A stretch of DNA of 64,000 nt, taken from a virus. The stretch is taken from the IMG/VR virus record IMGVR_UViG_3300031695_000001. One strand, written 5' to 3'. The stretch's first letter is position 1, and each line of letters opens with the position of its first letter. Of this stretch, positions 43,722 through 63,996 are shown piece by piece. Position numbers and translations under genes: made by a program. The notes beneath the pieces were generated by a model. That model made no database searches. It was not told the origin of the DNA and saw only the letters and a list, made by a program, of their open reading frames with translations.

Positions 43722-44327
43722 ATGACAGACAAATTAAATGACACATCAGGAATAAAGGTACAGGGACACATTAAGATTAGTGACCCTGCTACTGGCGAAG
43801 TATATGTTGACAAGCGTAACGCAATTCATTATGAAAACATGAGTCTTGCACTTGCGGAAAGTTTAGCAAATGCTGGCAAAGGAGCCATTTATGAAATGAG
43901 CTTTGGCAACGGAGGAACAAGTGTCGATCCAACAGGGATTATTACTTACTTAACTCCTAACTCAACAGGTACAAATGCTAGTTTGTATAATCAAACATTT
44001 ACTAAAGTTGTAGATGATTTGAGTACAAACAACACAGATCCTGTTAGAAATAAATTAGAAACTAGACACGTAAGTGGTACTAACTACACAGACATAATTG
44101 TAACGTGTTTACTTGATTACGGCGAACCCTCCGGACAAGATGCATTTGATACTGCTACAGATGCAACTAGTACATATGTGTTTGACGAGTTAGGGTTAAA
44201 GAGCTACGATCCTAGTACAACAGGTAAGTTAATTACACATGTAATTTTCCACCCAGTACAAAAATCATTAAACAGACTTATACAAATTGATTATACTGTA
44301 AGAGTCCAAAGTTTGTCAGGAGCATAA
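43722..44327 (+). CDS. Baseplate/tail-fibre attachment protein
   Basis: 201 aa; FDELGL and THVIFHPVQKS motifs; TAAATA at 43694-43699. Confidence 0.6.
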   Translation: MTDKLNDTSGIKVQGHIKISDPATGEVYVDKRNAIHYENMSLALAESLANAGKGAIYEMSFGNGGTSVDPTGIITYLTPNSTGTNASLYNQTFTKVVDDLSTNNTDPVRNKLETRHVSGTNYTDIIVTCLLDYGEPSGQDAFDTATDATSTYVFDELGLKSYDPSTTGKLITHVIFHPVQKSLNRLIQIDYTVRVQSLSGA

Positions 44328-44331
44328 TTAG

Positions 44332-46356: not shown

Positions 46357-46357
46357 A

Positions 46358-48172: not shown

Positions 48173-48205
48173 CGATAAATATATTATACAAAGGGTTATA
48201 TACAT

Positions 48206-49672
48206 ATGGCATATACAATTAATAGATACAGTGGCACTACTTTAGCAACAGTGCAAGATGGTACAGTTGATGCAACTTCCGATTTACGGTTTGTTGGTAA
48301 AAACTATGCTGGATATGGTGAGATACAGAACGAAAACTTCTTATTCTTGCTTGAAAGTTTTAGTGGAGCATCGCAACCGCCTAAAGCTATTACTGGTCAA
48401 GTGTGGTATGACACAGCAGTACAAAAATTAAAATTTTACAACGGTACTAAGTTTAAGAATACAGGCGGAGCAGAAGTTTCTGCAACACAGCCTACAGGAT
48501 TAACAGCAGGCGACTTTTGGTGGGATAGCGGAAACAATCAGTTATACGCATTTGATGGAACATCATATATCCTTATAGGACCACAAAGTACCGGCAGTGG
48601 CGTTACGCAAATGACAAGTAAAACTGTTAAAGACACTACTGCAACTAACAGAAGTGTTATTGTTGCAACAATTAACGATGAAGTAGTTTACATAATTAGT
48701 AGCCTTGAATTTACTATGGATGTTAGTGATTCATCTGCAATTACAGGATTTGACGTAGTTAAAAAGGGCTTGACAATGGTCAACACCCAAGCATCAACCA
48801 ATGGTGTTACAACTACTGATCATGTGTATCACGGAACTGCATCTAATGCATTAAGACTAGGCGGAAATTTAGCAAGCGATTTTGTACTAAGTGCAACAGG
48901 ATCTTTTAATAGTGTTATACGTTTTGCAGACGCTGGATTAACAGTAGGCGATAGTAATGATTTACTAATTACTATTGAAAATGGTAATGACGGATCTATT
49001 GCTAACCAAGTTGGTACTAACAGTATTATTAAACTTAAAGCTAACAACGCCGCAGGAGCACTAACACACTCAGCAACGTTCACAGCATTAGGCATGGCGC
49101 CTGCAACTACTAACGCATTTGATTTAGGTGCATCTGGTAATGTATGGGCAAACGTTTATGCAACAAATTTACAAGGCAATGCAACAACAGCAAGTGCATT
49201 AAAGCTATCTGGATCAGTTTACTTACCAGATGCAAGTGCTACAGCAAACACAGCGGCACTAAGAGACGCAAGCGGAAACTTAACAGCAACCTTATTTCAA
49301 GGTGTTGCTACACAAGCACGGTATGCTGACTTAGCAGAAGTATATGCCACTGATGAAATATATCCAGTTGGTACAATTATGGCAGTTGGCGGTGAAGCAG
49401 AAGCTACAGCGGCAGCGGCAAGTCATTATTGTATTGGTGTTATATCAGACAAACCAGCATACTTAATGAACTCAGAAGCTGAAGGTCAAGCAATTGGTCT
49501 TAAAGGAAGAGTTCCAGTAAGAGTTACTGGACCAGTTAAGAAAGGCCAGCCAATTTATGCTTGGGCAGACGGAGTAGGATCAACACTTGCAACTACTGGC
49601 ATGGTAGGTATTGCACTAGAGTCAGATGACTTTACTGAAGAAAAATTAATTGAGTGTGTACTAAAAGTATAA
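48206..49672 (+). CDS. Tail fibre with C-terminal intramolecular-chaperone (peptidase G2/S74-like) domain
   Basis: Same N-terminal module; ARYADLAE...GVIS..PAYLMN...GRVPVRV; TAAATA at 48176-48181. Confidence 0.8.
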   Translation: MAYTINRYSGTTLATVQDGTVDATSDLRFVGKNYAGYGEIQNENFLFLLESFSGASQPPKAITGQVWYDTAVQKLKFYNGTKFKNTGGAEVSATQPTGLTAGDFWWDSGNNQLYAFDGTSYILIGPQSTGSGVTQMTSKTVKDTTATNRSVIVATINDEVVYIISSLEFTMDVSDSSAITGFDVVKKGLTMVNTQASTNGVTTTDHVYHGTASNALRLGGNLASDFVLSATGSFNSVIRFADAGLTVGDSNDLLITIENGNDGSIANQVGTNSIIKLKANNAAGALTHSATFTALGMAPATTNAFDLGASGNVWANVYATNLQGNATTASALKLSGSVYLPDASATANTAALRDASGNLTATLFQGVATQARYADLAEVYATDEIYPVGTIMAVGGEAEATAAAASHYCIGVISDKPAYLMNSEAEGQAIGLKGRVPVRVTGPVKKGQPIYAWADGVGSTLATTGMVGIALESDDFTEEKLIECVLKV

Positions 49673-49703
49673 ATACTTAATATACGTAGTTTGAGGAAAT
49701 AAC

Positions 49704-50600
49704 ATGGCAGTAGGCGATTTAATCACAGCGGCACGATACAATAACGCACAAGCAAGAGTGGCTGCGATTATGGGAGTCGGCTCGACCACAGAAGGTTATG
49801 GACAAACTTTAAATAGTTCGCAGGTTAGTACAGCACTTACAGTTACAGCGGCACAAGTTAATGCATTATATGCTGACCTTGTAGCTGGAAGAATACACCA
49901 AACTGGGGCAACTCCTACTACTATTGTAGAAATAGTAATTGGTAATTCTATTGCTGACGCAACAAGTGACAATCCTAATGGTACAAAGAAAGGCTTCCTG
50001 GACTACGAAGCCTTAATTACAACATTTGAAGCAGATCCAGCTAGATTTGCTGTGGCAGCGTCACAGACTACTAACGGTACTGGTGTTACTAGCACAAGAA
50101 CTGCCGCCTGGAACACTGATATTGCACACGTAGTAAGAGTTGATTTTGCTACAGCTAACGCACGTAGAAATTATTTCAATGCCGGCGGCACTATTAAGTT
50201 TGAAGCTACTTTGGCAAGCGCCGGAGATGCAAAGTCGAATGATTGGGCCAGTATGTTAACTAATATGGGCACAATCGCAATGGGATACACTGCAACAACT
50301 GCAACTGGTACAGGAACAGTTACTTCAATTGGTAACTTTGATTTAACTTCATCTAATCAAATAATATTTCGCAAGCCTGGAACCGGTGTTTACTCTGCAA
50401 ACGATTATTATGTTTATGCAAAGGCAAACTCTGCAACACAGCTAGAGTTTACACTGCAATTCCAAGAAGAAGCCGCAGGCAATCCAAACTTTGACGAGCA
50501 AGTAAATGGCACACTAGTAAACTCTGTTAAGTTTAAACGCCCAAGCGGATCATATGTAACATTACCAGCACCGAGTTTTGTTACCGTAACTTCACTTTAA
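49704..50600 (+). CDS. Virion structural (tail-associated) protein
   Basis: 298 aa, Thr/Ala/Gly-rich, ARRNYFNAGG; TATAAATA at 49668-49675. Confidence 0.65.
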   Translation: MAVGDLITAARYNNAQARVAAIMGVGSTTEGYGQTLNSSQVSTALTVTAAQVNALYADLVAGRIHQTGATPTTIVEIVIGNSIADATSDNPNGTKKGFLDYEALITTFEADPARFAVAASQTTNGTGVTSTRTAAWNTDIAHVVRVDFATANARRNYFNAGGTIKFEATLASAGDAKSNDWASMLTNMGTIAMGYTATTATGTGTVTSIGNFDLTSSNQIIFRKPGTGVYSANDYYVYAKANSATQLEFTLQFQEEAAGNPNFDEQVNGTLVNSVKFKRPSGSYVTLPAPSFVTVTSL

Positions 50601-50603
50601 CCA

Positions 50604-50632
50604 TTGACAACACCCGCTTATTAGTATATACT
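50604..50632 (+). promoter_or_regulatory. Sigma70-type promoter for the glycosyltransferase/radical SAM operon
   Basis: TTGACA-17 nt-TATACT, followed by AAGGAG RBS. Confidence 0.85.
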
Positions 50633-50658
50633 ATATAGTATACATTTAAGGAGCAACT

Positions 50659-50994
50659 ATGGACGAACGACTAGAAGAAGCATTAGCCGTTAGTAAAGCG
50701 TTAGAAACACATCAAAATCAAAAGAATATTCTACATAAGCAATACAAAGATAATCTAATCTATTACTTTGATGGACAAAAAATTAGTGTAGATCTTTCAT
50801 TAATTGCGTATTGTACAACAAAAACAATGCCAATAGTTATTATTGATGATAATAAGACTCCAGTGCTTATTGATGACATAGAAGAATTTACTAAAAAAAT
50901 AACAGCAATGTATGAAACTGCTTCTCGTAAGTACTTTATGGAGTTTAAAAAGATTAAGTCAAAAAGATCAGTAAAGGAACTTATTGACTTATGA
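50659..50994 (+). CDS. Hypothetical protein
   Basis: 111 aa, strong RBS, first gene of the operon. Confidence 0.8.
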   Translation: MDERLEEALAVSKALETHQNQKNILHKQYKDNLIYYFDGQKISVDLSLIAYCTTKTMPIVIIDDNKTPVLIDDIEEFTKKITAMYETASRKYFMEFKKIKSKRSVKELIDL

Positions 50995-51839
50995 CGCAAG
51001 GTGTACTGTTATTTGCGTATAATTCTAAAAACATGGATTATACAAAGCAAGCTATATATTGTGCTAAACTTATTAAGCAACACCTTGGCAAAGAGGTTGC
51101 ACTAGTAACTGATGACGAATCATACCTTAACCGACAATATCCCTTTTACAAAAAATATATAGACCATGTTATTATTACAGGTCATGAAGATGCTGTACAA
51201 GAGCGAGTGTATAACGATGGGTTGTATCACAGTGATAAACAACGTTGGTACAATACTAATAGAAGTTCGTGTTTTGAATTATCTCCGTTTGATGAAACAA
51301 TTGTAATAGATACTGATGTTTTAATTTTTAATGACGAGTTAAACAAATGCTTTGGATCTTCTGAAGATTTCCTAATATCAAAAGACTACAATTTTGTAGA
51401 CATGAAACGAGACTATTCTGAGTTTGACAAAGTATCTGAAACAACATGCGATATGTTTTGGGCAACTGCATTTTATTTTAAGAAAACAGATTTCACAACT
51501 GTATTTTTTAACCTTATAGAACACATTAAAGAAAACTGGCATTTTTATAGATTAGTTTATGAAATTGCAGAAATTAAGTTTAGAAATGATTATGCATTTA
51601 GTATTGCTATACATACGTTACGCGGAATGAAAGATGCTACATGGCCGTTGCGTGTTCCTGCAAGTATATGGATCACAGTAGATAAAGATATCTTATATTC
51701 AATTGACGATACTAAGTTAACAGTGTTATTACACAAAGATTATGATTATCAATTAAGTGCAATTAGTGATGCTACTGTACACGTAATGAATAAGTTTTCA
51801 TTAGAGCGGTGCATTGATAAGGTGTTTGAAAATGAGTAA
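50991..51839 (+). CDS. GT-A fold glycosyltransferase-like protein
   Basis: SPFDETIVIDTD (DxD) and FRNDYAFSIA. Confidence 0.65.
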   Translation: MTQGVLLFAYNSKNMDYTKQAIYCAKLIKQHLGKEVALVTDDESYLNRQYPFYKKYIDHVIITGHEDAVQERVYNDGLYHSDKQRWYNTNRSSCFELSPFDETIVIDTDVLIFNDELNKCFGSSEDFLISKDYNFVDMKRDYSEFDKVSETTCDMFWATAFYFKKTDFTTVFFNLIEHIKENWHFYRLVYEIAEIKFRNDYAFSIAIHTLRGMKDATWPLRVPASIWITVDKDILYSIDDTKLTVLLHKDYDYQLSAISDATVHVMNKFSLERCIDKVFENE

Positions 51840-52674
51840 CGGTGTTTGTTTACTAGCGCAAAATAATATCAAGACTAATTATGTCCGGCAAGCATACGCA
51901 CTTGCATTAAGTATTGTTGCAAAGTCTCCTAATCAAAAAGTAAGTCTTATTACTAATGATCCTGTAAGTGACAAGTATAAAAAGGTATTTGATCAAATTA
52001 TTCCTATTCCGTGGTCAGACGATTGTTCCGACGACAGTGACTGGAAAATTGAAAATAGGTGGAAAGTTTATCACGCAACTCCTTACCGTAACACAATGGT
52101 ATTTGATGTTGATATGTTAGTACTTGAAGACTTAGATATTTACTGGAAACAGCTACAAAAAAATAACGTTGATCACGACATATTATTTACAACACAGGTA
52201 GTTAATTATCGAAACGAAGTTGTTACTAATAGATATTATAGAAGAACCTTTGATGCAAATGATTTACCTAATTTATATTCAGGAATGTATTATTTTAAAA
52301 AAGCAGAAACAACAAAACAATTTTTTGGGTTGTTAAAAACTGTTATGTGGAACTGGGGCGACTTTTATAAAATTAGTTTAAGTAAGATACCACAAGAATG
52401 GTGTAGCTTTGATGTGTGTACTGCAATAACTGCAAAGCTATTAGATAGAATGTACACAGTGGGTGATAAGAATAACATACTAGAGTTTACACATATGAAA
52501 ACTCGTTTACAAAATGTACCATTAGGTGAAAAATGGACAGACACCTTGTTTGTTGATTTTAATAGCGATCTTGAATTAATAGTTGGCGGATTAAAACAGT
52601 CGGGTGTATTTCATTATGTTGAGGACGAGTTTTTAACAGACAGAATAATAGATATTTTAGAGGATGCAGTATGA
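51832..52674 (+). CDS. GT-A fold glycosyltransferase-like protein (paralog of the preceding gene)
   Basis: TPYRNTMVFDVDML (DxD), NLYSG.YYFKK, FTHMK; likely start is the ATG at 51832 overlapping the upstream gene end. Confidence 0.65.
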   Translation: MSNGVCLLAQNNIKTNYVRQAYALALSIVAKSPNQKVSLITNDPVSDKYKKVFDQIIPIPWSDDCSDDSDWKIENRWKVYHATPYRNTMVFDVDMLVLEDLDIYWKQLQKNNVDHDILFTTQVVNYRNEVVTNRYYRRTFDANDLPNLYSGMYYFKKAETTKQFFGLLKTVMWNWGDFYKISLSKIPQEWCSFDVCTAITAKLLDRMYTVGDKNNILEFTHMKTRLQNVPLGEKWTDTLFVDFNSDLELIVGGLKQSGVFHYVEDEFLTDRIIDILEDAV

Positions 52675-53291
52675 GTTATTATGCATATTACAATGAAAAG
52701 TTTGAAGTAACAATAATTAGTAATGAGCTTGATAATACTACACATGATATGTTTATTATTATTGACGAAGTTATGTTTTTAGCATTTGCAGAAGAAAAGA
52801 TTAACTATTCTAATTATGCAGTAATCGGCGGGAAGCTAACATTAAAAGCAGAGCTTGAATTAGAAAAATATACAGACTCTAGAATTCCAGTAACACTTAC
52901 TGACGAAGTATTTGAAAACTGCTTAATGGTAACACAAGATAAAAAAAATAAACATTGGTTTGCACAGTGTTATGTTAGTACAGAAGTTATTGAGAATTTT
53001 GTATTACTACCTAAAGAGCATATTGAAAAAAAGATATTTACATTCTACGTAGTATCAAAGGATAACAGATTTATTTTACTAGACACTATCAAAGTGCCTG
53101 CTAAAAATATTCTAACTAAAAAAGAAAGCTGGCGGCAACATGGATTGCGTGACAACGAAGATGTTGAAGTATTTACATCACCGGCATACACTATTGCAGA
53201 TTTTGATACATCAGTAGTAACACAGGATGTTAGATTACTGTGTCGTAGAGATTTCTTAACGTATCATCATAAAGTAGGAGAGTTGGCATGA
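52671..53291 (+). CDS. Hypothetical protein
   Basis: 206 aa, ATGA-coupled at both ends. Confidence 0.75.
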   Translation: MSYYAYYNEKFEVTIISNELDNTTHDMFIIIDEVMFLAFAEEKINYSNYAVIGGKLTLKAELELEKYTDSRIPVTLTDEVFENCLMVTQDKKNKHWFAQCYVSTEVIENFVLLPKEHIEKKIFTFYVVSKDNRFILLDTIKVPAKNILTKKESWRQHGLRDNEDVEVFTSPAYTIADFDTSVVTQDVRLLCRRDFLTYHHKVGELA

Positions 53292-54208
53292 AAATTATAG
53301 ATTATGATATCATTTATTTGAGTTATGATGAACCAAATGCAGAAAAAAATTATGCAGACTTATTAAGCAAAGTGCCTTGGGCAAAGCGTGTACATGGTGT
53401 AGAAGGCAGTGATGCCGCACACAAAGCATGTGCTAAACTAAGTGAAACAGATCGCTTTATTACAGTAGATGGCGACAACATTATTAATGCAGAGTTTTTA
53501 GGACAAGAACTTGACTTTGATGATCATGCAGACTTAGAACATAGTGTAATTAGTTGGTGCGGCAGGAACATAATTAACGGATTAATGTACGGCAATGGTG
53601 GATTAAAATGTTGGCCAAAGCAGTATGTGTTAGATATGAAAACACATGAAAATGCAGAAGCAGACAATCCGCATGCACAAGTTGACTTTTGCTGGGATCT
53701 AAAATACATACAGCAAAACAGTTGGTATAGCGATGTGCATAATAATGAAACTGCACTACAAGCATGGAGGGCAGGTTTCCGTGAAGGTGTTAAGATGTCA
53801 TTAGATCAAGGAGTGCGACCAACTAAAGAAGCGTTCTTACAAGGCCATTGGAAAAACTTACATAGATTGTGGGTGTGGTTAATGGCAGGCGCTGATGTGG
53901 AAAATGGACTATGGGCTATTTATGGTGCTCGAGAAGGATTGTACATGACAATGTGTACAGATTGGGATTATGTACAAGTTAGAGATTTTGAATATTTAAA
54001 CGAGTACTGGAATAAAACAGTTAGTGTATATATAAATGACGACAACTTGCTGGAATCAATTCAACGGTTAGGCAACAGTCTTATTGATGAATTAGAAATA
54101 CCCATTGCTAAAAATCCTTTAGATGCACAACAAAGTAAGTTCTTTAAAGAAGTTTACCAGAATCCAAGTAGAAACAGCAGAAAACAGTTTGTGATTGATC
54201 CTGAATGA
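53288..54208 (+). CDS. GT-A fold glycosyltransferase-like protein
   Basis: DIIYLSYDEP, RVHGV.G...AH, FITVDGD (DxD), AWRAGFREG. Confidence 0.6.
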   Translation: MKIIDYDIIYLSYDEPNAEKNYADLLSKVPWAKRVHGVEGSDAAHKACAKLSETDRFITVDGDNIINAEFLGQELDFDDHADLEHSVISWCGRNIINGLMYGNGGLKCWPKQYVLDMKTHENAEADNPHAQVDFCWDLKYIQQNSWYSDVHNNETALQAWRAGFREGVKMSLDQGVRPTKEAFLQGHWKNLHRLWVWLMAGADVENGLWAIYGAREGLYMTMCTDWDYVQVRDFEYLNEYWNKTVSVYINDDNLLESIQRLGNSLIDELEIPIAKNPLDAQQSKFFKEVYQNPSRNSRKQFVIDPE

Positions 54209-55575
54209 GCAACGAACAACGCATAACAGAATTAAAACTAAAAAAAGATCTAATAAATTCTGTTAGTTGTAGTTTCTGTACGGCTAAGTGGTTACAAACA
54301 ACCCTTATGTTACAAAATGGATATAATCATAGTTGCCACCACCCGGCACCGCATAAAATTCCATTAGAAGAAATAGAAGCAGACCCTGCGGCATTGCACA
54401 ATAGTAAGTTTAAAAAAGAACAACGTGCTATGATGTTAAAAGGCGACCGCCCTTTAGAATGTGATTACTGTTGGAAGATTGAAGATTTAGATAAAGAGTA
54501 TTTTTCAGACAGACACTATAAAACAGCAGATACTTGGGCATGGGATAGGTTTGAAGATATTGCTAAAAGTGATCCACAAGACAATGTGTATCCTAGTTAC
54601 TTAGAAGTTAGTTTTAGTAATGCTTGCAACTTTGCGTGTGCTTACTGCTCGCCTGAAATTAGCAGTAAGTGGATGGAGGATATAAAACAAAATGGTGAGT
54701 ATCCAGACGGTGCTCATAATTTAGATTACTTAAAGAAAACAGGTAAATTTCCATATGCAAACAACGAAGACAATCCGTATGTAACAGCATTTTGGAAATG
54801 GTTTCCTGATGCACTTCCGCATTTAAAAGTTCTACGTATTACAGGCGGCGAACCTACAATGAGTAAAGATACTTGGAAGTTATTAGATTACATAATTAAT
54901 AATCCACAACCTCAATTAGAAATTGCAGTTAATACAAATTTAAATGTTCCAGCAAAGCTAATAGATAAATTAATATACTATAGCGGCGAGCTTGAAGGTA
55001 AACTTAAAAAGTTTGACATATACACAAGTGCTGAAGCAGTTGGTGATCAAAATGATTATGTAAGAGATGGAATGAATTACAAAGTTTGGATGACTAATGT
55101 ACATCGTATGTTGTATGAAACTAATAGTACTGTAGCAATAATGACAACTATTAATATTTTAAGTTTGCCTAGCTTTGCTAAATTTATACAAGACGTTATG
55201 GAACTTAGAAAAGATTACAATTTAAATTTTGAACACAATAGAATTCCGTTAAGCATTAACTATCTTAGATGGCCTTTGCATTTACAAACTATACTATTAG
55301 ATAAAGAACAACGTGTAAAGTACGCTAATGAAATTGAAAGTACTTCAGAAGCATGGCTCAAGTATTACAGTAAAGAAAAATATGCTAGAATTTACTTAGA
55401 AGAATTTGATCAAATAAAACGGTTGTGTAACTATCTTAGAAACACAGAACCAGCTATTCAATATCGTGGTAACTTTTGCAGATATATACATGCATACGAT
55501 AAGCGTCGAAACAAAAACTTTAAGAATACTTTTCCAGAGTACTCAACATTATTAGAGGATTGGCATGCCAGCTAA
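54205..55575 (+). CDS. Radical SAM enzyme 1 with N-terminal Cys (SPASM/twitch-like) domain
   Basis: CNFACAYC, TGGEP; N-terminal FC..KW, SCHH, CDYC. Confidence 0.9.
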   Translation: MSNEQRITELKLKKDLINSVSCSFCTAKWLQTTLMLQNGYNHSCHHPAPHKIPLEEIEADPAALHNSKFKKEQRAMMLKGDRPLECDYCWKIEDLDKEYFSDRHYKTADTWAWDRFEDIAKSDPQDNVYPSYLEVSFSNACNFACAYCSPEISSKWMEDIKQNGEYPDGAHNLDYLKKTGKFPYANNEDNPYVTAFWKWFPDALPHLKVLRITGGEPTMSKDTWKLLDYIINNPQPQLEIAVNTNLNVPAKLIDKLIYYSGELEGKLKKFDIYTSAEAVGDQNDYVRDGMNYKVWMTNVHRMLYETNSTVAIMTTINILSLPSFAKFIQDVMELRKDYNLNFEHNRIPLSINYLRWPLHLQTILLDKEQRVKYANEIESTSEAWLKYYSKEKYARIYLEEFDQIKRLCNYLRNTEPAIQYRGNFCRYIHAYDKRRNKNFKNTFPEYSTLLEDWHAS

Positions 55576-57010
55576 ACAAGATGAAACATTGCTACAGTAC
55601 AGGCAACGTATAATAGATCCAAAGAGTACTAGCTTCTGTGGTGCAAAATGGTTTAATGCAACTACTTGGTTAGGTAGTGGTACAACTGCTAGTTGTCACC
55701 ACCCGCCGGCACATCAGATTCCATTAGAAGAAGTAGAAGAAAACTACACAGCAATTCATAACACTAAACATAAGAAAGAAATGCGCAGGCAAATGCAAAA
55801 GGGCGAACGCCCTGCAGAGTGTGAGTATTGCTGGAAGATGGAAGATATGAAAAAAAATGCAGTTAGTGATCGCACCTTTAAAACTATTATCTATACAGAC
55901 GAAGAACTACAGGCTGCATATGATGCAGACTGGAATGAAAATGCTAATCTTAAAACATTTGAAATAGCATTTGATCGAGTTTGCAACCTAGCATGTAGTT
56001 ACTGCAATGCTAGTTTTAGTACTACATGGGCAAAAGATATTAATAAGAATGGTCCTTATGAAAACTTAGTCAGTGATGGCGCAGGTGCGTTTAAACACAA
56101 TGGTGATTGGGCCGCTCCGTACAATGATGATGCAGACAATCCTTATATACAAGCATTTTGGAAATGGTGGGATAACGGTCTTGCAGATAGTTTAGATGAA
56201 CTACGCATTACAGGCGGCGAACCATTAATGAGCGGCAACACTTGGAAACTATTTGATTGGTATTCTAAACAGAAATCAGATATGCGATTTGCTATTAACT
56301 CGAACTTAATTGCAAAAGAAAGCATTATTAATAAGTTAATTGAGAAAGCCCAAGGAATTAAAAAGTTCCACATTTATACTAGCTGTGAAGCAGTTGGTGA
56401 ACAAGCTGAATACATCCGAGACGGGCTAGTTTACGATCAATGGGTAAACAACGTAACACGTATTTTAGATGAAACTGACGTAGAGCTACATTGCATGATG
56501 ACTATTAATAGCTTATGCTTGTTTAGTATTACAGAATTTCTTGATCAAATATATACGCTAAAAGAACGTACAGGAACAAAAACGCCGACAGTAAGTTTAA
56601 ACTTATTACGTTTTCCAAGTTTCCAAAGTCCTTTAGCATTGCCAGTACATCTTAAAGATTATTGCTACAATAAACTAAATGATTGGTATAACGCAAACAA
56701 GCACAAAGCGTTATGGCACGAGCATGAAAAAGCAAGCATTGAACGCTTAATAGATTATCTAGTTACTGTAGATGCTCCGCATAGACGCACAAGCAATCCT
56801 GTAACACTATGGCGTGACTTCAAAACATTTTATGCACAATACGATGTAAGACGAAATAAAAACATAAACGTGTTTCCTAAAATCCTAACAGATTGGATAG
56901 AAAGTATTCCTGATACAGATTCAAGTATTATGGAACTTGCAGAAAAAGAAGGTTGGATATTAAATCCTGACAATAAGAATATTGCCAAGGAACTAGCTAC
57001 GTATGAGTGA
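55565..57010 (+). CDS. Radical SAM enzyme 2
   Basis: CNLACSYC, TGGEP; FC..KW, SCHH, CEYC. Confidence 0.9.
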   Translation: MPAKQDETLLQYRQRIIDPKSTSFCGAKWFNATTWLGSGTTASCHHPPAHQIPLEEVEENYTAIHNTKHKKEMRRQMQKGERPAECEYCWKMEDMKKNAVSDRTFKTIIYTDEELQAAYDADWNENANLKTFEIAFDRVCNLACSYCNASFSTTWAKDINKNGPYENLVSDGAGAFKHNGDWAAPYNDDADNPYIQAFWKWWDNGLADSLDELRITGGEPLMSGNTWKLFDWYSKQKSDMRFAINSNLIAKESIINKLIEKAQGIKKFHIYTSCEAVGEQAEYIRDGLVYDQWVNNVTRILDETDVELHCMMTINSLCLFSITEFLDQIYTLKERTGTKTPTVSLNLLRFPSFQSPLALPVHLKDYCYNKLNDWYNANKHKALWHEHEKASIERLIDYLVTVDAPHRRTSNPVTLWRDFKTFYAQYDVRRNKNINVFPKILTDWIESIPDTDSSIMELAEKEGWILNPDNKNIAKELATYE

Positions 57011-58298
57011 GTATTTCTGTGTAGCACCGTGGACACATACATACGTTAGCCCTCAAGGTGAACGTAGACTTTGTTGTGCAAGCAGAGAAGAACCTCAGTT
57101 CCAAAAGCAATATATTGATAGCGGCGACAATAACAATACAGAGTTTAATCCGTCTACATTAAAAGAGCATTGGAATAGTGCATACATGAAAGATATACGG
57201 AAACGTATGTTAGCTGGTGAAAAATTAAGTCAGTGTGATGTGTGTAATAATCAAATACTAAACTTACACACTTATAAAAGCTATTTTAATAATACATTGT
57301 TTCCAAACAAGATACAGGATATTATTGATAACACTGCGGAAGACGGGCACACTACGTTAACTCCAGTTAGCTATGATTATAGAATTTCAAATTTATGTAA
57401 TTTCAAATGCCGTATGTGCGGAGAACAACTAAGTTCAAGTTGGGAAACAGAAAAAATAATACATGATAGAGTTAACTATGATGATGCTAAATGGATGGTA
57501 CCCGACACTCGTAAAAAGATTTCAAGATTTCAAAAAGACGTATTAGAAGTAGAATTACAAGAAGCAGTCGACAACGGAACTGTTGAAGAAATATACTGGG
57601 TAGGCGGCGAGCCTCTAATGTATGACATACATTGGAGAATAATGCAACAGCTAGTAGATAGCGGTAAAAGTAAAGATGTAGTTATTCGTTATAATACAAA
57701 CCTAAGCAGAGTTATATATAAAAATTATAGTTTATATGATTTGCTTCCTCATTTTAAAAAAGTAAATGTATGTGCAAGTATTGATGGTGTTGGTACTGTA
57801 GGAGAGTATATACGCACAGGATTAAAATGGAACCAGTGGATTGATAATTTTAAGCAGGGGCATTTTTTAATTGACCAATACGGTGACGATGCATTAGTAT
57901 TTGACGTTACACTTACGACTCCAGGGTTGTTTGATTTAAAAAATATGTTTGATTGTGTTACTGAGCTAGGAGTAAAAAGCTATTTTAAAATAACCTTTGC
58001 TTTTGATCCTTCGGTAGTAATGAGTCCGTTGTGTTTGCCTAAAGATATACTAGAAGAAACAGTTAACGAATTATTAGAATATATGGAGCCTCGTGTTACT
58101 CCAAAAACACAAGTTTATATAGATACACTTAAAAACTTATTAACTCGCCCAACGTTTTATGAATCATATTCAGATGCAGAGAAAGGTATTAAACAGGGAA
58201 AAAGGAATATAGAATTTTTAGAAAGTATTAGAGACTGTGACGTAACTTTTAGAAGTATACTTAATGATCGTGCTAAAGAATGGTGGGACAAAATATGA
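57003..58298 (+). CDS. Radical SAM enzyme 3
   Basis: CNFKCRMC, GGEP; FCVAPW, LCC, CDVC. Confidence 0.9.
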   Translation: MSEYFCVAPWTHTYVSPQGERRLCCASREEPQFQKQYIDSGDNNNTEFNPSTLKEHWNSAYMKDIRKRMLAGEKLSQCDVCNNQILNLHTYKSYFNNTLFPNKIQDIIDNTAEDGHTTLTPVSYDYRISNLCNFKCRMCGEQLSSSWETEKIIHDRVNYDDAKWMVPDTRKKISRFQKDVLEVELQEAVDNGTVEEIYWVGGEPLMYDIHWRIMQQLVDSGKSKDVVIRYNTNLSRVIYKNYSLYDLLPHFKKVNVCASIDGVGTVGEYIRTGLKWNQWIDNFKQGHFLIDQYGDDALVFDVTLTTPGLFDLKNMFDCVTELGVKSYFKITFAFDPSVVMSPLCLPKDILEETVNELLEYMEPRVTPKTQVYIDTLKNLLTRPTFYESYSDAEKGIKQGKRNIEFLESIRDCDVTFRSILNDRAKEWWDKI

Positions 58299-59509
58299 GT
58301 AAAACATTTTGTCCTTTACCGTGGACTCACTTAGCTACACACCCGCACGGCGCTGTTACACTTTGTTGCGAAAGTAACATGACAAATCGTGCAAGTGATT
58401 CACAAAATGCAAATGGTGATTTTCAAACTTTTCAAACTACAGAGTATGATTTGAATAAGATTATGAATAGTGATCTATTTAGAGAAGTACGTATGCAAAT
58501 GCTTAACGGAAAAGAGCCTAGTGTTTGTTCAACGTGTTACAAATACGAAAGTATGGGAAATGAAAGTAAGCGGACAATAGAATTAGAGCGACTTGATTAT
58601 AGTTTAGAAGATGCTATATTAGATACTAACTTTGATGGATATATTGATCACACAAATTTTGAATTTATTGAATTAAGACTTGGTAACCATTGTAACTTAG
58701 CTTGTAGATCCTGCAACCCGTTTAGTAGTACAAAATGGATTAAAGATTGGGAAAAATTACATGGTGAAACTCCAGTTCAACAAAATCTATTTAATTGGCC
58801 CTTGGATGAAAAGTTTTGGGATAGTCTTAAGAAACATTGTAAAAAAATAAAACATTTATATATTAATGGAGGGGAACCTTTACTAATTGACAAGCACAAG
58901 CACTTCTTACAGTTTTTAGTTGATGCTGGTTATGCTAAAAATATAGAATTAACATACAGTACTAATAGTACTATTATTGACGAAGGTTATGTAGACATTT
59001 GGAGACAGTTTAAGTACGTTAACTTTTGGCTTAGTATTGATGACATTCAAGAAAGAAATGAATATCTAAGATACCCATCTAATTGGACTAAAACAATTGA
59101 AGCGTTAACTTGGTTTAGTTCTTTATACAATTACGAAGACCGAGGCGAGCATAGGTTACGTCCTAGGGTAATGCAAACAGTAAGTATAATGAATATCTAT
59201 TATGTAAAAGAGGCGCACGACTTTTTTGAAAAACTTAATCTAACTGTGGATCATAATTTTGTTAATGATCCTAGTTATTATAATGCTGTAAATTTACCAC
59301 CGTATGCAAAACAAAAAGCATTAGACAGGTTAAAAGGCATACCGCCACATATACATAGCAAGTTCCGAAACTTTTTAAATATCGATAATAATACTGATCA
59401 CTTTGCAAAGTTTTTTGTGGTTAATAATAAACTAGACGAAATAAGAAAAGAATCATTTAAAGATATATTCGGAGAATGGTACGAAATATTAAGGAGATCA
59501 AATGGATAA
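58295..59509 (+). CDS. Radical SAM enzyme 4
   Basis: CNLACRSC, GGEP; FCPLPW, LCC, CSTC; likely start is the ATGA overlap at 58295. Confidence 0.9.
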   Translation: MSKTFCPLPWTHLATHPHGAVTLCCESNMTNRASDSQNANGDFQTFQTTEYDLNKIMNSDLFREVRMQMLNGKEPSVCSTCYKYESMGNESKRTIELERLDYSLEDAILDTNFDGYIDHTNFEFIELRLGNHCNLACRSCNPFSSTKWIKDWEKLHGETPVQQNLFNWPLDEKFWDSLKKHCKKIKHLYINGGEPLLIDKHKHFLQFLVDAGYAKNIELTYSTNSTIIDEGYVDIWRQFKYVNFWLSIDDIQERNEYLRYPSNWTKTIEALTWFSSLYNYEDRGEHRLRPRVMQTVSIMNIYYVKEAHDFFEKLNLTVDHNFVNDPSYYNAVNLPPYAKQKALDRLKGIPPHIHSKFRNFLNIDNNTDHFAKFFVVNNKLDEIRKESFKDIFGEWYEILRRSNG

Positions 59510-60689
59510 ATTTTTCTGTGTTGCGCCATTCGTTCATATGTATGCACACCCTGACGGGGCTGTTAAGACTTGTTGTGCAGGTATCGATAACTTTGGTAAC
59601 CTAAAAACTAATTCACTTGAAGAGATTTGGGATAATGATAAGTTTACCCAACTGCGAAAAGATTTTATTGCAGGCGATGTCACTGATCTTGTAAAGAGTA
59701 ATTGTGCAACTTGTGTTAATTTTGAAAAGAGTAAAATACATTCTTTGCGTGAAGGCTTAAATGCAGAGTTTACAGAACATGCTATAATAGAGGAGAAGCC
59801 TGACTTAAATCTCCTCTACATAGATTTCCGATTTAATAACTTTTGTAACTTCAAGTGCAGGGGTTGCTATCATGAGTACAGTAGTTCTATTGCTAATGAA
59901 GATGCTGGCAAATCCGTGCCTATTATCTATGCTGGAAAGACTCTTGAGGATTTATACAACCAAACATTACCGCACTTGAAATACACTAAGAAGATTTATT
60001 TTGCTGGAGGAGAGCCTTTAATACAATGGGAACATTGGAAAATATTAGATAAGTTGTTAGAACAAAACAACACTGATATCTCACTAGTGTACAACACAAA
60101 TTTTAGTACTATGAAATATAAAAATAAAAACGTGATAGATTACTGGAAACAATTCAAAAATATAAAACTACTTCTTAGCATTGACGGGATGGAAAAGGGC
60201 GGTGACTGGTGGAGGCATGGTAACAGCTGGAAAAAGCTACAGAATAACATTGAAACTGTTAAGACTGAATGCCCGCACATTTCTCTAGGAGTTACTTGTA
60301 CTGTAGGCTGGGCTAATCTATACACTGCAATGGATTTAATTGACTATTGCTCGGATACTCATTTAATAAATCCAGAAGACATTAATATAAACGTTTTACA
60401 ATACCCAGTACACTTCTGTGTGCAGACCGTGCCTGACTGGAAGAAACAAGAACTAGAAATACGCATTAAAAAAACCTTTAGTAAATACATTAGTATGGGA
60501 TTTGAAGATGACTCCCTACTAGCCAGAAATTTGATTGCATTAATTGATTTTATGTGGGCAAAAAAAGGGGACACTAAAAAAGTTAAAGGTGGGTGGTCCC
60601 AGATGGTAACAAAAAAAGATATGCTTAGAGGTGAAAATTTCTTTGAAGCATTTCCAGAACATATAAACATGAGAGAGTTAGTTGAATGA
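59502..60689 (+). CDS. Radical SAM enzyme 5
   Basis: CNFKCRGC, GGEP; FCVAPF, TCC, CATC. Confidence 0.9.
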   Translation: MDKFFCVAPFVHMYAHPDGAVKTCCAGIDNFGNLKTNSLEEIWDNDKFTQLRKDFIAGDVTDLVKSNCATCVNFEKSKIHSLREGLNAEFTEHAIIEEKPDLNLLYIDFRFNNFCNFKCRGCYHEYSSSIANEDAGKSVPIIYAGKTLEDLYNQTLPHLKYTKKIYFAGGEPLIQWEHWKILDKLLEQNNTDISLVYNTNFSTMKYKNKNVIDYWKQFKNIKLLLSIDGMEKGGDWWRHGNSWKKLQNNIETVKTECPHISLGVTCTVGWANLYTAMDLIDYCSDTHLINPEDININVLQYPVHFCVQTVPDWKKQELEIRIKKTFSKYISMGFEDDSLLARNLIALIDFMWAKKGDTKKVKGGWSQMVTKKDMLRGENFFEAFPEHINMRELVE

Positions 60690-61969
60690 TTAGTGATAAT
60701 ATTTTTCCAATAAAGACTGCCACTGCCTGTCAATTCAAATGGTCATGGAGTACAATTTTCCTATCGAAGGGTACAACTACAAGTTGTCACCGTTGCAACC
60801 ATTGGGAATTTGATTTAGATACCCTCAAAGACTTCCACAATCTTCCTGGAAAGATCGCTGATAGAGAAAAGATGCTTGACGGTTTGTGGCCAGGGAATGG
60901 ATGTGAGTACTGTAAGAAGATTGAAGATGCTGGTGGTTCCAGTGAACGTACTGCTTGGATCAACAAAAAAGATTTGATACCGCCTGAGATTCTTGCTGGT
61001 GATATGAAAGCAACAAAGGTAACTCCTAGATTGCTAGAAGTTTACTTCACTAACGTATGTAACCAAGCATGTGTCTATTGTACTCCGCAATTCAGTTCTC
61101 AGATTGAAGCAGAATTGAGAAAGCATGGAAAAATACCAGCTAACCCTAGCTACATGAATCATCCTAGTATTGGCGACAACTACCCTCTGTATCTACAGAA
61201 ATTTTGGGAGTGGATGGAAGAACACGGATCAGAACTATATGAGTTCCAGATTCTTGGCGGCGAACCACTGTACCAAAAAGAGTTTGAGCAATGTCTTAAT
61301 TTCTTTGATAAACATCCAAATCCAAATCTCATTATGAGAATCTTTAGTAATCTAAAGCATGATGAAGAGAAGTTTAAAAAGAAGATTCAAAAAGTTAATG
61401 ATCTTATTGCAAACAAAAAGATACGGGAGCTTCATATTGTTGCAAGCCAAGATTGTTGGGGACCTCAAGCAGAATACGCTAGGTACGGAATGAATCTAAA
61501 GAACTGGGAAGCTAATATCAGATATTGCCTGTCACAAGGCATTCCAGTTAATATCCATATGACAATCAGTGCATTGACTATTCCTACCCTAGGAGATTTC
61601 ATAGATAAGATTTACAGTTTACGCAAAGAATACAAAGCAGGATTATGGATTAGTTCAAACACCATTGTTAACCCTGAATGTTTAGACCCGTATATCTTTG
61701 GTGACAAAATTGCATTCTACTTAGAAGATGTTCTTACTAAGCTAACTGACCCAAATGACAAACAGCAGAAAGAATGTTTAGAAGGCATTCTTGCAGGAAT
61801 GAAGTCTAGTAAGGTAAACACAAAACAAGTAAATGACTTTAAAAATTATTTAGATGAGATTGACAAGAGGCGAAAAACCAATTGGCGAATCCTTTATCCT
61901 GTTATTAGTGATATAGCTGAGACAATAACCTTGCCAGTTGAAGAATCAATTCAATGCGTTAATCTTTGA
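60686..61969 (+). CDS. Radical SAM enzyme 6
   Basis: CNQACVYC, GGEP; CQFKW, SCHRC, CEYC. Confidence 0.9.
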   Translation: MISDNIFPIKTATACQFKWSWSTIFLSKGTTTSCHRCNHWEFDLDTLKDFHNLPGKIADREKMLDGLWPGNGCEYCKKIEDAGGSSERTAWINKKDLIPPEILAGDMKATKVTPRLLEVYFTNVCNQACVYCTPQFSSQIEAELRKHGKIPANPSYMNHPSIGDNYPLYLQKFWEWMEEHGSELYEFQILGGEPLYQKEFEQCLNFFDKHPNPNLIMRIFSNLKHDEEKFKKKIQKVNDLIANKKIRELHIVASQDCWGPQAEYARYGMNLKNWEANIRYCLSQGIPVNIHMTISALTIPTLGDFIDKIYSLRKEYKAGLWISSNTIVNPECLDPYIFGDKIAFYLEDVLTKLTDPNDKQQKECLEGILAGMKSSKVNTKQVNDFKNYLDEIDKRRKTNWRILYPVISDIAETITLPVEESIQCVNL

Positions 61970-61987
61970 CAAGAGGAGTAAAACAAC

Positions 61988-63331
61988 TTGTTTAATATTT
62001 TAATTTACAAAAAAGCCCAAGGCGACTTTTCTATTGGCATTCCTTGTCTTAATGACACTAATCAGCCCATCCCCAGGTGGAACGAATACTTAGATAAGTA
62101 TGATCTTTTTAACTTTGTTGCGTTGAAAAAGAAAGTTGGGACAAGAAAGAAAATACCAAATACAAAATATATTGTATTCATTTCATATTATGGCCATTTT
62201 ATAAGTAATACAGACTTTAAACCATTATATGATTGTCAACTTGGCGAATACATTGGTACTACTGATTCTAGACGCAGTGAGTTTTATATGCCTGATCGTG
62301 TTCGCACAGATAGTGAAAACGGTCTAGTTCATTGGGTCATTGATTATAATACAGAATGTAGTCAATTAGACCAAACAGACAACTTCAATCAAATTGATTT
62401 TAATAGAGTGTGCCAACTGCTACATACAGTACCTAATAACATTACACTTATTACAGGTGGCGAAACTGTATCAGAATTAGGTACTGCAACGCTTACATCG
62501 CCAGATAACTTGGGATACAATTGCATTACTGGACACGAATTATATAATTTTATTAATATACGAAAAGGTAACGACAATGACGAAGCACATAATACATATA
62601 GTAGTCAAAAAATAAGAAATATAATAAATGGAGAAAATTTAAAATATAAATCTTTATGTTATAATAGATTACCTAGACCCCATAGAACTATAATAGTGGC
62701 ACACATTATAAAAAATAATTATCATGATGATTGTTTGTATAGTTTGGGTTTATCCCCTAATATGCCCAGATGGTTCACTGACGCTCCGTTTCCGCCTATT
62801 TCAAAGTTTCCAGAACTTTCAAATGAAATGAATCAGCTCCGGACTGGACCTGAAATATATCCGCATATAAGGGAAGGGGATGTAAGCCTAACAGTAAATC
62901 TTGCAGATACAATAGGCTGGGAACACGGATTAACTTCATACTTTCAGCTTGTTACAGAAACTACGCCTACTGCTAATAACATTCCATTTATTACAGAAAA
63001 GTCCATGAAGCCGTTTGCTATGCTACAACCGTTTGTGCAATACGGACCAAAAGACAATATAAAAGTTTTAAGGATGTACGGATATCAAATGTTTGATGAT
63101 TGGATAGATCATAGTTATGATGATGAAGAAGACAACAGTAAACGGCTTCGTATGGTATTAACTGAATTTGACAGACTACAAAAAATACCAAAAGACATAT
63201 GGTCAAAAATGTTACAAGAAATGTTAAGTCAGTTATTACATAATAATAAATTAGTAAAACGACCGCCAATATATGATTTTACTTCTCAGTTAATACCAAT
63301 ACTATCAAAGTTCATAAAGGCACCACAATGA
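61988..63331 (+). CDS. Hypothetical protein with GT-B/GT10-like C-terminus
   Basis: CYNR.PR.HR, LVTET, FITEKS.KP...QPF, GY..F...IDHSYD; TTG start after GAGGAG. Confidence 0.5.
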   Translation: MFNILIYKKAQGDFSIGIPCLNDTNQPIPRWNEYLDKYDLFNFVALKKKVGTRKKIPNTKYIVFISYYGHFISNTDFKPLYDCQLGEYIGTTDSRRSEFYMPDRVRTDSENGLVHWVIDYNTECSQLDQTDNFNQIDFNRVCQLLHTVPNNITLITGGETVSELGTATLTSPDNLGYNCITGHELYNFINIRKGNDNDEAHNTYSSQKIRNIINGENLKYKSLCYNRLPRPHRTIIVAHIIKNNYHDDCLYSLGLSPNMPRWFTDAPFPPISKFPELSNEMNQLRTGPEIYPHIREGDVSLTVNLADTIGWEHGLTSYFQLVTETTPTANNIPFITEKSMKPFAMLQPFVQYGPKDNIKVLRMYGYQMFDDWIDHSYDDEEDNSKRLRMVLTEFDRLQKIPKDIWSKMLQEMLSQLLHNNKLVKRPPIYDFTSQLIPILSKFIKAPQ

Positions 63332-63996
63332 AAAAATTAGTAGTAGCAGGATGTTCAGTTAGTGATTGGACACAGGTTGATAAAGCGTGGGGCGAATATG
63401 TTGCAAAACATCTAGGATTAGAATACATGCACTTAGCGGCAGGATGTGGCTCTAATTATAGAATGTGGCGCCTCTTAACAACACATATACGCAATGGCAC
63501 TATTACTTCTGACGATACTGTATTAGTACAATATACTACATTAGAACGTACTGAATTTTGGTCAGCTCTTATTGATCGCCATTGGCATATACCCAATGTG
63601 CATTTGCGTGATTCTTACACTGAAGGTAGCATAATTAAATTTAAGACAGGCTCGCACGAATGGCATAGTGGCATTGAACGCAAGTTCATGAAAATGTACG
63701 AACGGTTTATCGGTATCGAGTTCGAACATGAAAAGTTTATTAATAATCACATTGCGTTTCAGTGTTTGGCAAAAGAATATAACATACATAATTTATACTT
63801 TGTAAAAGTAGGTAAGTATGGCTATAATGGAGAAGATGTTCATCCAACGATATCTAAATATAAAGATAATTTCTTAAATTACAACGATATATTTGATAAT
63901 AAAAAATGGCATTTAAAAGGTGACCCTTTTCATTTAAGTGCTACGGGTCACACTATATTAGCAGATAGAGTTATTAAAGTAATAGAATCAAAATGA
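63328..63996 (+). CDS. SGNH/GDSL hydrolase-like (possible acyl-esterase/acyltransferase)
   Basis: N-terminal VAGCS, G.GSN, C-terminal D.FHLS..GH. Confidence 0.65.
   Translation: MKKLVVAGCSVSDWTQVDKAWGEYVAKHLGLEYMHLAAGCGSNYRMWRLLTTHIRNGTITSDDTVLVQYTTLERTEFWSALIDRHWHIPNVHLRDSYTEGSIIKFKTGSHEWHSGIERKFMKMYERFIGIEFEHEKFINNHIAFQCLAKEYNIHNLYFVKVGKYGYNGEDVHPTISKYKDNFLNYNDIFDNKKWHLKGDPFHLSATGHTILADRVIKVIESK

Follow-up and report, generated by a model that had tools for sequence, protein, structure and literature searches.

Why would a virus carry six radical S-adenosylmethionine (SAM) enzymes in a row? This question is raised by a stretch of 64,000 nucleotides (nt) from the IMG/VR virus record IMGVR_UViG_3300031695_000001 (this whole stretch is hereafter called the window), in which six consecutive plus-strand open reading frames (ORFs) of 395–481 amino acids (aa), here named rS1 to rS6, overlap their neighbours by 4–19 nt. 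An earlier note, made from the DNA letters alone, had described them as tandem radical SAM paralogues with an iron-sulphur domain at the N-terminus, and had proposed that they expanded within this phage and that each performs one step of a pathway. Here, we find that all six belong to an existing family of radical SAM proteins with an N-terminal twitch domain (N-twitch), that they lie in a conserved operon with glycosyltransferase genes and beside fibre genes, and that related phages carry different sets of them. We consider it probable that the six genes encode a modular glycan-tailoring set inside a hypervariable host-recognition island.

The N-twitch family and its conserved residues

The NCBIfam model NF033640 (N_Twi_rSAM, 'twitch domain-containing radical SAM protein') has a curated cut-off of 170 bits, which all six proteins pass with 228–362 bits and with matches that run from model positions 1–3 to 385–397 of 398. 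When the genome was searched with this model, the same six places were found, and no further paralogue beyond these was detected in the 122-kb genome record. Thus, the permuted architecture described in the earlier note, with the auxiliary domain ahead of the core, is real but not new, as it is already covered by NF033640. The earlier note would have been refuted if the paralogues clustered with one characterised housekeeping family, which they do not. The Pfam model PF04055, which had been suggested as a check, matches the six proteins with 22.8–37.3 bits, so that four of them fall just below the cut-off of 29.5. In PHROGs, rS1 and rS3 match generic 'radical SAM' families, and the neighbouring genes have no match.

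In an alignment of the six proteins, where pairwise identity is 19–43%, the motifs read from the single sequences are invariant. These are, in the numbering of rS1, C141, C145 and C148 of the CxxxCxxC motif, S153, G214-G215-E216-P217 (GGEP), R287 of the (Y/W)xR motif and R435 of the acidic-x-x-R motif. The N-terminal set C25, C44, C86 and C89, with the spacing C-x18-C ... CxxC, is likewise invariant. The claim of an N-terminal auxiliary iron-sulphur domain had been made dependent on the conservation of these residues, and it is borne out in a wider alignment of 354 family members, taken from 80 loci of viruses and 12 of cells with no selection other than on length and CxxxCxxC: the four N-terminal Cys occur in 352–354 of these sequences. 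GGE, N245, S275 and R287 are found in all of them. Furthermore, Pfam SPASM matches lie at the extreme N-terminus of rS3–rS5 (residues 6–87). The seven-Cys SPASM motif of two auxiliary clusters is not seen; conserved family-wide are the four N-terminal Cys, plus an adjacent fifth Cys or His, depending on the clade, beside the second twitch Cys. The N-terminal domain is hence a predicted twitch domain rather than a full SPASM domain.

The two subtypes that had been distinguished by their motifs correspond to two clades in the tree. Clade A comprises rS1, rS2 and rS6 (SCH) together with an extra upstream type, and clade B comprises rS3, rS4 and rS5 (CC) together with others. Directly behind the second twitch Cys, clade A has His (SCH or SCHH) and clade B has Cys (CC); among the 354 members, this position is His in 165 and Cys in 174, and it might provide a fifth ligand or relay protons. 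All six genes are under purifying selection, as the ratio of nonsynonymous to synonymous substitution rates (dN/dS) against the nearest orthologues is 0.03–0.10. For rS4, the longest ORF begins at 58280. Because the homologues begin with MSKTFCPLPW, which corresponds to the internal ATG at 58295, and because a start at this ATG results in a 4-nt ATGA overlap with rS3, position 58295 is more likely the true start, as had been noted before.

Operon, natural fusions and cassette mosaic

The array is part of a run of 13 coupled plus-strand genes that begins at 50659 and reaches the end of the window (Table 1). The sole gap in this run is 18 nt long (61969 to 61988), and no convincing plus-strand terminator was found within the operon. 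The fibre genes (44332–50600) come first, followed by the GT8-like genes and then the array. We compared this arrangement with 80 related loci from IMG/VR. The gene rS1 is present in all 80, and rS2 is directly next to it wherever the locus reaches past rS1; then 0–6 further members follow. Most loci with enough upstream sequence have a fixed order of fibre genes, the 111-aa protein, two paralogues of ~280 aa, a slot of ~200 aa, a protein of ~306 aa, rS1 and rS2. The same order is found in two complete phages, 424 and 524 kb in size, whose genomes have terminal repeats.

The operon is headed by a sigma-70-type promoter in the intergenic gap 50601–50658, which matches 11 of 12 consensus positions and is the best match between 46 and 64 kb. 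The pattern TTGAC[AT]-N16-18-TAnAnT is kept upstream of the homologue of the first gene in 30 of 40 related loci, where the spacer has diverged and the encoded protein has 33–49% identity. Since both boxes are kept while the spacer and the downstream protein diverged, we read this element as a real host-polymerase promoter, from which transcription would be early. A T4-type late box TATAAATA is located at 49668–49675, that is, 29 nt upstream of a fibre-like gene starting at 49704; three of the four other copies of this box in the window are also found at gene boundaries (5893, 10176 and 10208), with a total count that is not above chance.

Natural fusion proteins connect the family to glycosyltransferases. 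The protein P0288 (681 aa) consists of a GT-A domain of the w53288 family (hidden Markov model E=6e-60, residues 2–239) and an rS1-type enzyme (41% identical), which is the window's own gene pair w53288/rS1 in one chain. In P0271, the C-terminal part that follows an rS2-type enzyme resembles the Pfam-GT2 proteins of locus L091. Further examples are a 673-aa protein with N-twitch and Pfam GT2 on a 452-kb Actinomycetota contig and P0249, which combines N-twitch, a methyltransferase and a WbsX glycosyltransferase. In addition, there are many tandem proteins of two or three family members; for instance, P0250 joins an rS1-like and an rS2-like enzyme and P0241 an rS4-like and an rS5-like enzyme, both in the order of the window. 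The fusions tie the family to glycosyl transfer and suggest that adjacent enzymes of the array likely act as a complex. Several rS1-type proteins (P0289, P0294, P0362, P0370, P0379, P0321 and L100:6376-8526) carry unassigned N-terminal extensions of 230–440 aa, which are of at least two unrelated kinds, none of them the w53288 domain; an extension of this size is also found in a 716-aa protein of the bacterial contig G045.

When comparing the window to its relatives, we find that the close relatives share the core at 81–86% DNA identity and have different downstream cassettes. The closest relative, L001, is collinear with the window at 86% DNA identity from 44221 to 57048 and then stops ~45 nt into rS3. 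Locus L003 has the same core with an extra inserted gene, followed by rS3 and rS4 (57015–59488) at 79%, and stops at the boundary between rS4 and rS5. The window shares rS4 with L003 and L067 at 79% DNA identity. Orthologues of rS5 occur only in L053, L054 and L059, at 66%. In these three loci, the copy of rS6 is 84% identical to that of the window, whereas the identity of rS1 is no more than 62%; this difference indicates lateral cassette exchange. The break in homology with L001 (window 57003–57048; L001 12799–12847) falls inside a stretch of ~20 nt that encodes F-C-x-A-P-W, including the first twitch Cys. This stretch is nearly identical among non-orthologous clade-B genes and could be a recombination box, or it could merely reflect a constraint on the protein. 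Besides five N-twitch genes, the island of L001 (G001:C1 ~120–145 kb) has at least seven genes that belong to other radical SAM families, a QueC-like PP-loop gene and an SGNH-like gene; its radical SAM load is much larger than that of the window.

The expansion inside this phage that the earlier note had proposed does not hold. In the tree, rS1, rS2, rS3 and rS4 are each placed in a well-supported orthologue group, and the copies in these groups come from many phages. The groups of rS1–rS4 also include genes on Bdellovibrionota chromosomes, with up to 57% identity. The duplications are thus old and not local to the phage. Because each copy belongs to an old orthologue group and because relatives with the same core have different tails, the array must have been assembled by cassette exchange and not by local duplication.

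The family is widespread. There are thousands of rS1 homologues with at least 70% identity in marine metagenomes, and a profile of the six proteins finds 6,273 clusters at 50% identity (E <= 1e-30). Among 121 sampled genomes of Bdellovibrionota, 26 have 1–11 copies, which are often clustered. For example, a 2.66-Mb Bdellovibrionota contig (G045) contains, beside bipA and dus, orthologues of rS3 (57%), rS4 (41%) and rS2 (54% and 51%), along with a 716-aa rS1-type fusion, an APH-type kinase, a sugar-type nucleotidyltransferase, three GDSL-like proteins and a GT2. A cluster on a 2.9-Mb Bacteriovoracaceae chromosome includes two GT2, one PMT_2 (GT-C) and five more radical SAM genes. Two cultured phages carry the family: Ralstonia phage RsoM2USA has a minimal core with one enzyme (RsoM2USA_354-348; the rS1 orthologue, RsoM2USA_349, is 45% identical, and RsoM2USA_350, 352 and 353 are homologues of the transferases), and Vibrio phage K566 has three copies, two of them above the cut-off. 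The related records have 2 to 9 or more copies that score above the cut-off and also contain other radical SAM families within the same island. In the complete 165-kb phage G006, which has seven copies, the gene directly upstream of the array encodes a UDP-glucose/GDP-mannose dehydrogenase and overlaps the first of the array genes.

Genes for capsid, portal, baseplate and a late sigma factor identify the phage of the window as a T4-like myovirus. Its capsid protein is 67–69% identical to those of jumbo phages of ~350–470 kb (Pectobacterium CBB, Serratia BF, Sinorhizobium Phosso and Vibrio 2.275.O), and CheckV estimates the 122-kb record to be 35% complete. Due to this capsid likeness and the low completeness of a record of this size, we assign the window to an uncultured marine jumbo phage. 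No near-identical DNA was found among GenBank phages. As the window ends inside the operon and the 122-kb record ends at window position 63034, the array may continue beyond the window. Upstream of the fibre genes, a single ORF of 4,922 aa (28928–43696) may represent a VrlC-like giant gene, which is known to bound host-recognition clusters.

Table 1. Promoter and genes of the operon in the window (positions in nt; bits are scores against NF033640).
Feature	Position	Strand	Characteristics
Sigma-70-type promoter	50604..50632	+	TTGACA-17 nt-TATACT; heads the operon
111-aa protein, function unassigned	50659..50994	+	First core gene; same-position homologues in 40 loci; RsoM2USA 36%; no Pfam family
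GT8-like GT-A glycosyltransferase, first of pair	50991..51839	+	Profile match to glycogenin-1; syntenic in 43 loci
GT8-like GT-A glycosyltransferase, second of pair	51814..52674	+	Profile of 10 homologues against glycogenin-1/2, E=7e-8; syntenic in 45 loci
206-aa protein, poorly conserved core slot	52671..53291	+	Detectable homologue in 8 loci only; no Pfam family
w53288, GT-A-fold glycosyltransferase-like	53288..54208	+	Fixed upstream partner of rS1; AlphaFold model, predicted local distance difference test (pLDDT) 82
rS1	54205..55575	+	Clade A (SCH), core member; 322 bits; dN/dS 0.07–0.08
rS2	55565..57010	+	Clade A, core member paired with rS1; 304.5 bits; dN/dS 0.03–0.10
rS3	57003..58298	+	Clade B (CC), accessory cassette; 329 bits; N-terminal Pfam SPASM match
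rS4	58280..59509 (probable true start 58295)	+	Clade B, accessory cassette; 362 bits
rS5	59502..60689	+	Clade B, rare accessory cassette; 305 bits; Pfam SPASM E=1.3e-9, residues 6–71
rS6	60686..61969	+	Clade A, rare accessory cassette; 228 bits
447-aa protein (w61988), phage-only family	61988..63331	+	Relatives in 20 loci, often twice in the variable part of the islands
SGNH/GDSL-like protein	63328..63996	+	Runs off the window; weak Pfam DUF6071, E=1.5e-4, under the cut-off

A Pfam search of the genes neighbouring the array found no family; the glycosyltransferase nature of some of them was seen by profiles and fold. For the first GT8-like protein, a profile of nine homologues matches the nucleotide-binding/DxD half of glycogenin-1 (E=0.004), and D107 and D109 are invariant. 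In the slot of the 206-aa protein, most loci have a gene of ~185–305 aa. The best structural matches of the w53288 model are the capsid glycosyltransferase A64R of PBCV-1, SunS and WrtF (E about 3e-4). Clusters of w53288 in the Atlas are named 'Glycosyltransferase 2-like', and D61 and D63 (DxD) are invariant. Downstream of the array, the invariant residues in the family of the 447-aa protein include E324, T325, E337, K338, D374, Y377 and D378. No Pfam or solved-structure relative of this family was found, and a weak Atlas match to GT10 fucosyltransferases (0.78–0.79) is the sole lead. A gene with an N-terminal motif similar to that of the SGNH/GDSL-like protein is present in L001, and GDSL-type genes also occur in the bacterial clusters.

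Proposed function and alternatives

We infer the substrate class from the genes with which the family is associated: glycosyltransferases and sugar-activating enzymes recur in the islands of the phages, in the clusters of the bacteria and in the fusion proteins, and a sugar-related role, which had been suggested before, is therefore plausible. The reaction type and the location of the glycan are inferred as well, whereas the family membership, the motifs, the operon with its promoter, the cassette mosaic and the links to glycosyltransferases are observed in the sequences. The operon would comprise a fixed core (the small protein, two GT8-like enzymes, an unassigned gene, the GT-A enzyme, rS1 and rS2) and a tail of exchangeable cassettes (rS3–rS6 and two more). 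The GT-A enzymes would put sugars onto an acceptor. Each N-twitch enzyme, docked to a transferase or to a neighbouring paralogue, would cleave SAM at the CxxxCxxC cluster, and the resulting radical would take a hydrogen from one particular sugar carbon, with each cassette having its own site or sugar. All four predicted twitch ligands are Cys. Published work on BtrN and anSME assigns fully ligated auxiliary clusters to electron transfer and not to substrate binding. Because of the four Cys and this precedent, we propose that the radical is resolved via the twitch cluster as an electron conduit. The outcome could be a two-electron oxidation to a keto-sugar, as in BtrN and anSME, or an ensuing epimerisation or rearrangement, and the product would be a strain-specific, unusual glycan. 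Neither a flavodoxin nor a 2Fe-2S ferredoxin, which could serve as a phage-encoded reductant, was found in five records; thus, the host would have to supply the electrons and assemble the clusters. The copy number, which ranges from 1 to 9 or more, fits a set of optional modules for tailoring better than a linear pathway with one fixed step per paralogue.

Several observations weigh against a glycan-tailoring role. The operon itself contains no sugar-nucleotide synthesis gene. In the 122-kb record, KdsA (Pfam DAHP_synth_1) was not found, and a PfkB/HldE-like kinase at G000:C1:106322-107086, ~45 kb off the array, remains below the cut-off. Such sub-threshold HldE-like kinases are present in four of the 17 records searched. 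On these grounds, we rejected a link to the synthesis of 3-deoxy-D-manno-oct-2-ulosonic acid (Kdo) or heptose. In G006, with its seven copies, an HldE-like gene was not found, and thus the arrays do not go together with any one sugar pathway. Neither a characterised relative nor an assayed member of NF033640 was found, so that the substrate class rests on context and fusions. The fold is of little help: the AlphaFold model of rS4 (pLDDT 90; predicted core at residues 126–370) matches anSME, BlsE, viperin and SkfB with Z of 11.7–12.2, and for anSME, SkfB and BlsE 203–212 residues are aligned at a root-mean-square deviation of 3.4 Å and 14–18% identity. These matches represent the generic SPASM/twitch core and are tied among enzymes that act on peptides, sugars and nucleotides. 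Hence, the modelled core of rS4 looks like a SPASM/twitch-type radical SAM enzyme, and the match is uninformative on function. Lastly, the sigma-70 promoter would lead to early and not late expression, which weakens the version in which the virion is decorated.

Within a glycan-tailoring role, it is somewhat more likely that the glycan sits on the Ser/Thr-rich tail-fibre proteins, which are encoded just upstream, than on the host envelope. The fibre as a target is favoured by the adjacency of the genes, by the soluble enzymes without recognised export genes and by the A64R-, SunS- and glycogenin-like transferases. With the same enzymology, the target could instead be an envelope glycan of the host (O-chain or capsule) that is remodelled early, for example, to block the adsorption of competing phages; this would explain why a conserved host-type sigma-70 promoter heads the operon, whereas the fibre gene upstream has the late box TATAAATA instead. 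The bacterial homologue clusters, which hold PMT_2 (GT-C) and GT2 enzymes that build surface glycans, are also consistent with an envelope target, and the same role was proposed for the GT8 genes of pelagimyophage host-recognition clusters (PMC7029224). However, we recognised neither a flippase or polymerase nor a lipid-carrier transferase or membrane protein among the genes of the operon, several of which are unannotated. Although WrtF and teichoic-acid transferases are among the best matches of w53288, these also include A64R and SunS, which glycosylate capsid protein and peptide; GT8 includes the protein-glycosylating glycogenin, and the module always adjoins fibre genes. We thus regard the host envelope as a rather unlikely, yet serious, alternative.

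Two further alternatives move away from glycans altogether. The enzymes might be protein or peptide maturases, similar to the SPASM/twitch enzymes of ribosomally synthesised and post-translationally modified peptides (RiPPs), and introduce a thioether, a C-C bond or an epimer into fibre or virion proteins. The closest solved cores include anSME, SkfB, CteB and SuiB, fibre genes adjoin the array, and the genome encodes three proteins of 317–319 aa with 10% Cys. We nevertheless find this improbable, since the array genes overlap or are 18 nt apart, which leaves no room for a small precursor gene between them, and since the bacterial clusters have glycosyltransferases without having fibre genes. 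In addition, where fusion partners outside the radical SAM family were recognised, they proved to be glycosyltransferases and a methyltransferase rather than peptide-binding domains (several extensions being unassigned). No RiPP recognition element (RRE)-type family is among the Pfam or NCBIfam matches of the six proteins, although a precursor gene could lie elsewhere in the genome. The Cys-rich proteins were not found in three complete array-bearing phages and three bacterial genomes; we rejected them as a substrate because they do not co-occur with the arrays. They are paralogues with a Gly-rich motif, encoded outside the window (G000:C1:64436-65389, 87112-88068 and 88077-89036), and are confined to this phage and its nearest relative. 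Even less probable is an action on nucleotides or DNA, that is, base hypermodification or viperin-like modified nucleotides. Viperin is among the top structural matches, the core has weak matches to the viperin family and to QueE, and the island of the closest relative encodes the QueC-like PP-loop protein; however, the viperin-family and QueE matches cover the shared core only and reach 15–40 bits, compared to cut-offs of at least 180. Furthermore, the context and the fusions involve GT-A, GT2, WbsX and GT-C glycosyltransferases, which do not act on DNA, and a ThyA-type pyrimidine hydroxymethylase was not found in the complete phage G006 with its seven copies; for the latter reason, DNA hypermodification was rejected.

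If the enzymes indeed edit glycans, this would be new carbohydrate chemistry and a new way for phages to diversify the glycan at the interface between phage and host. It is possible, although less likely than not, that the arrays form a combinatorial 'glycan-editing' toolkit, in which each transferase-docked cassette performs a different C-H functionalisation (oxidation, epimerisation, C-C or ring rearrangement) of a kind new to glycobiology. Phages and predatory bacteria would then shuffle the cassettes, perhaps by recombination at the 5' box of the first twitch Cys, and thereby diversify a recognition glycan. The family of ~6,300 clusters is abundant in ocean phages and Bdellovibrionota and is tied to glycosyltransferases by operons and several independent fusions. 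The fusions indicate partners, and RsoM2USA, with its one-enzyme core, and K566, with its three copies, offer tractable cultured entry points.

Relation to known systems

To our knowledge, radical SAM enzymes that act on sugars have been described in only a few antibiotic pathways. BtrN (2-deoxy-scyllo-inosamine dehydrogenase) is the prototype of the twitch radical SAM enzymes and acts on a sugar-like substrate. Like the phage enzymes, it has a domain with one four-Cys auxiliary cluster (predicted in the phage enzymes) whose ligands have the spacing C-x18-C ... CxxC, and a SPASM/twitch-type core. When the N-terminal 100 aa of rS5 are compared to solved structures by sequence, the best match is the twitch segment of BtrN, at a marginal E=0.12. 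The difference is one of order: the twitch domain of BtrN is C-terminal to the partial triosephosphate isomerase (TIM) barrel, whereas that of the phage enzymes is found at residues 1–90, ahead of the core. The auxiliary domains of anSME, SkfB and BlsE, which are the top structural matches for the core, are also C-terminal, and anSME has two auxiliary clusters; as these matches are tied with viperin and MoaA, the likeness carries no information on function. The same end-to-end architecture, with an N-terminal four-Cys twitch and then the CxxxCxxC core, is described by NF033640, whose definition is a naming model only, without phage context, arrays or glycosyltransferase fusions. We found no paper that uses the accession NF033640 or that treats an 'N-terminal twitch' with radical SAM, and none that combines jumbo phage, radical SAM, marine and glycosyltransferase.

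Virion glycosylation, as exemplified by A64R of PBCV-1, resembles the phage operon in that soluble GT-A enzymes are encoded beside structural genes, and A64R is the best match of w53288. We know of no radical SAM enzymes in virus-encoded virion glycosylation systems. For the phage of the window, glycosylation of the virion is a prediction.

A parallel in gene content is the host recognition cluster (HRC) of pelagimyophages and cyanomyophages, a variable island by fibre genes with GT8 and radical SAM cassettes (PMC7029224). For pelagimyophages, Zaragoza-Solas et al. (2020) described an HRC with GT8 genes, rfaE, UDP-Glc dehydrogenase and radical SAM cassettes; two similar clusters differed in their radical SAM 'gene cassettes', which were mentioned without further analysis (PMC7029224). 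Thus, the family model and the presence of such cassettes in these islands, noted in passing (PMC7029224), were already known. What appears to be new here are the fusions with glycosyltransferases and between paralogues, the cassette breakpoints, the promoter footprint over 40 loci, the high-identity orthologues in Bdellovibrionota and the two cultured carriers. As in an HRC, fibre genes, GT8-like genes and the array follow each other in the window, and the cassettes differ from those of relatives that are 81–86% identical. The phage is not a pelagimyophage, however, and has a jumbo-phage-like capsid instead.

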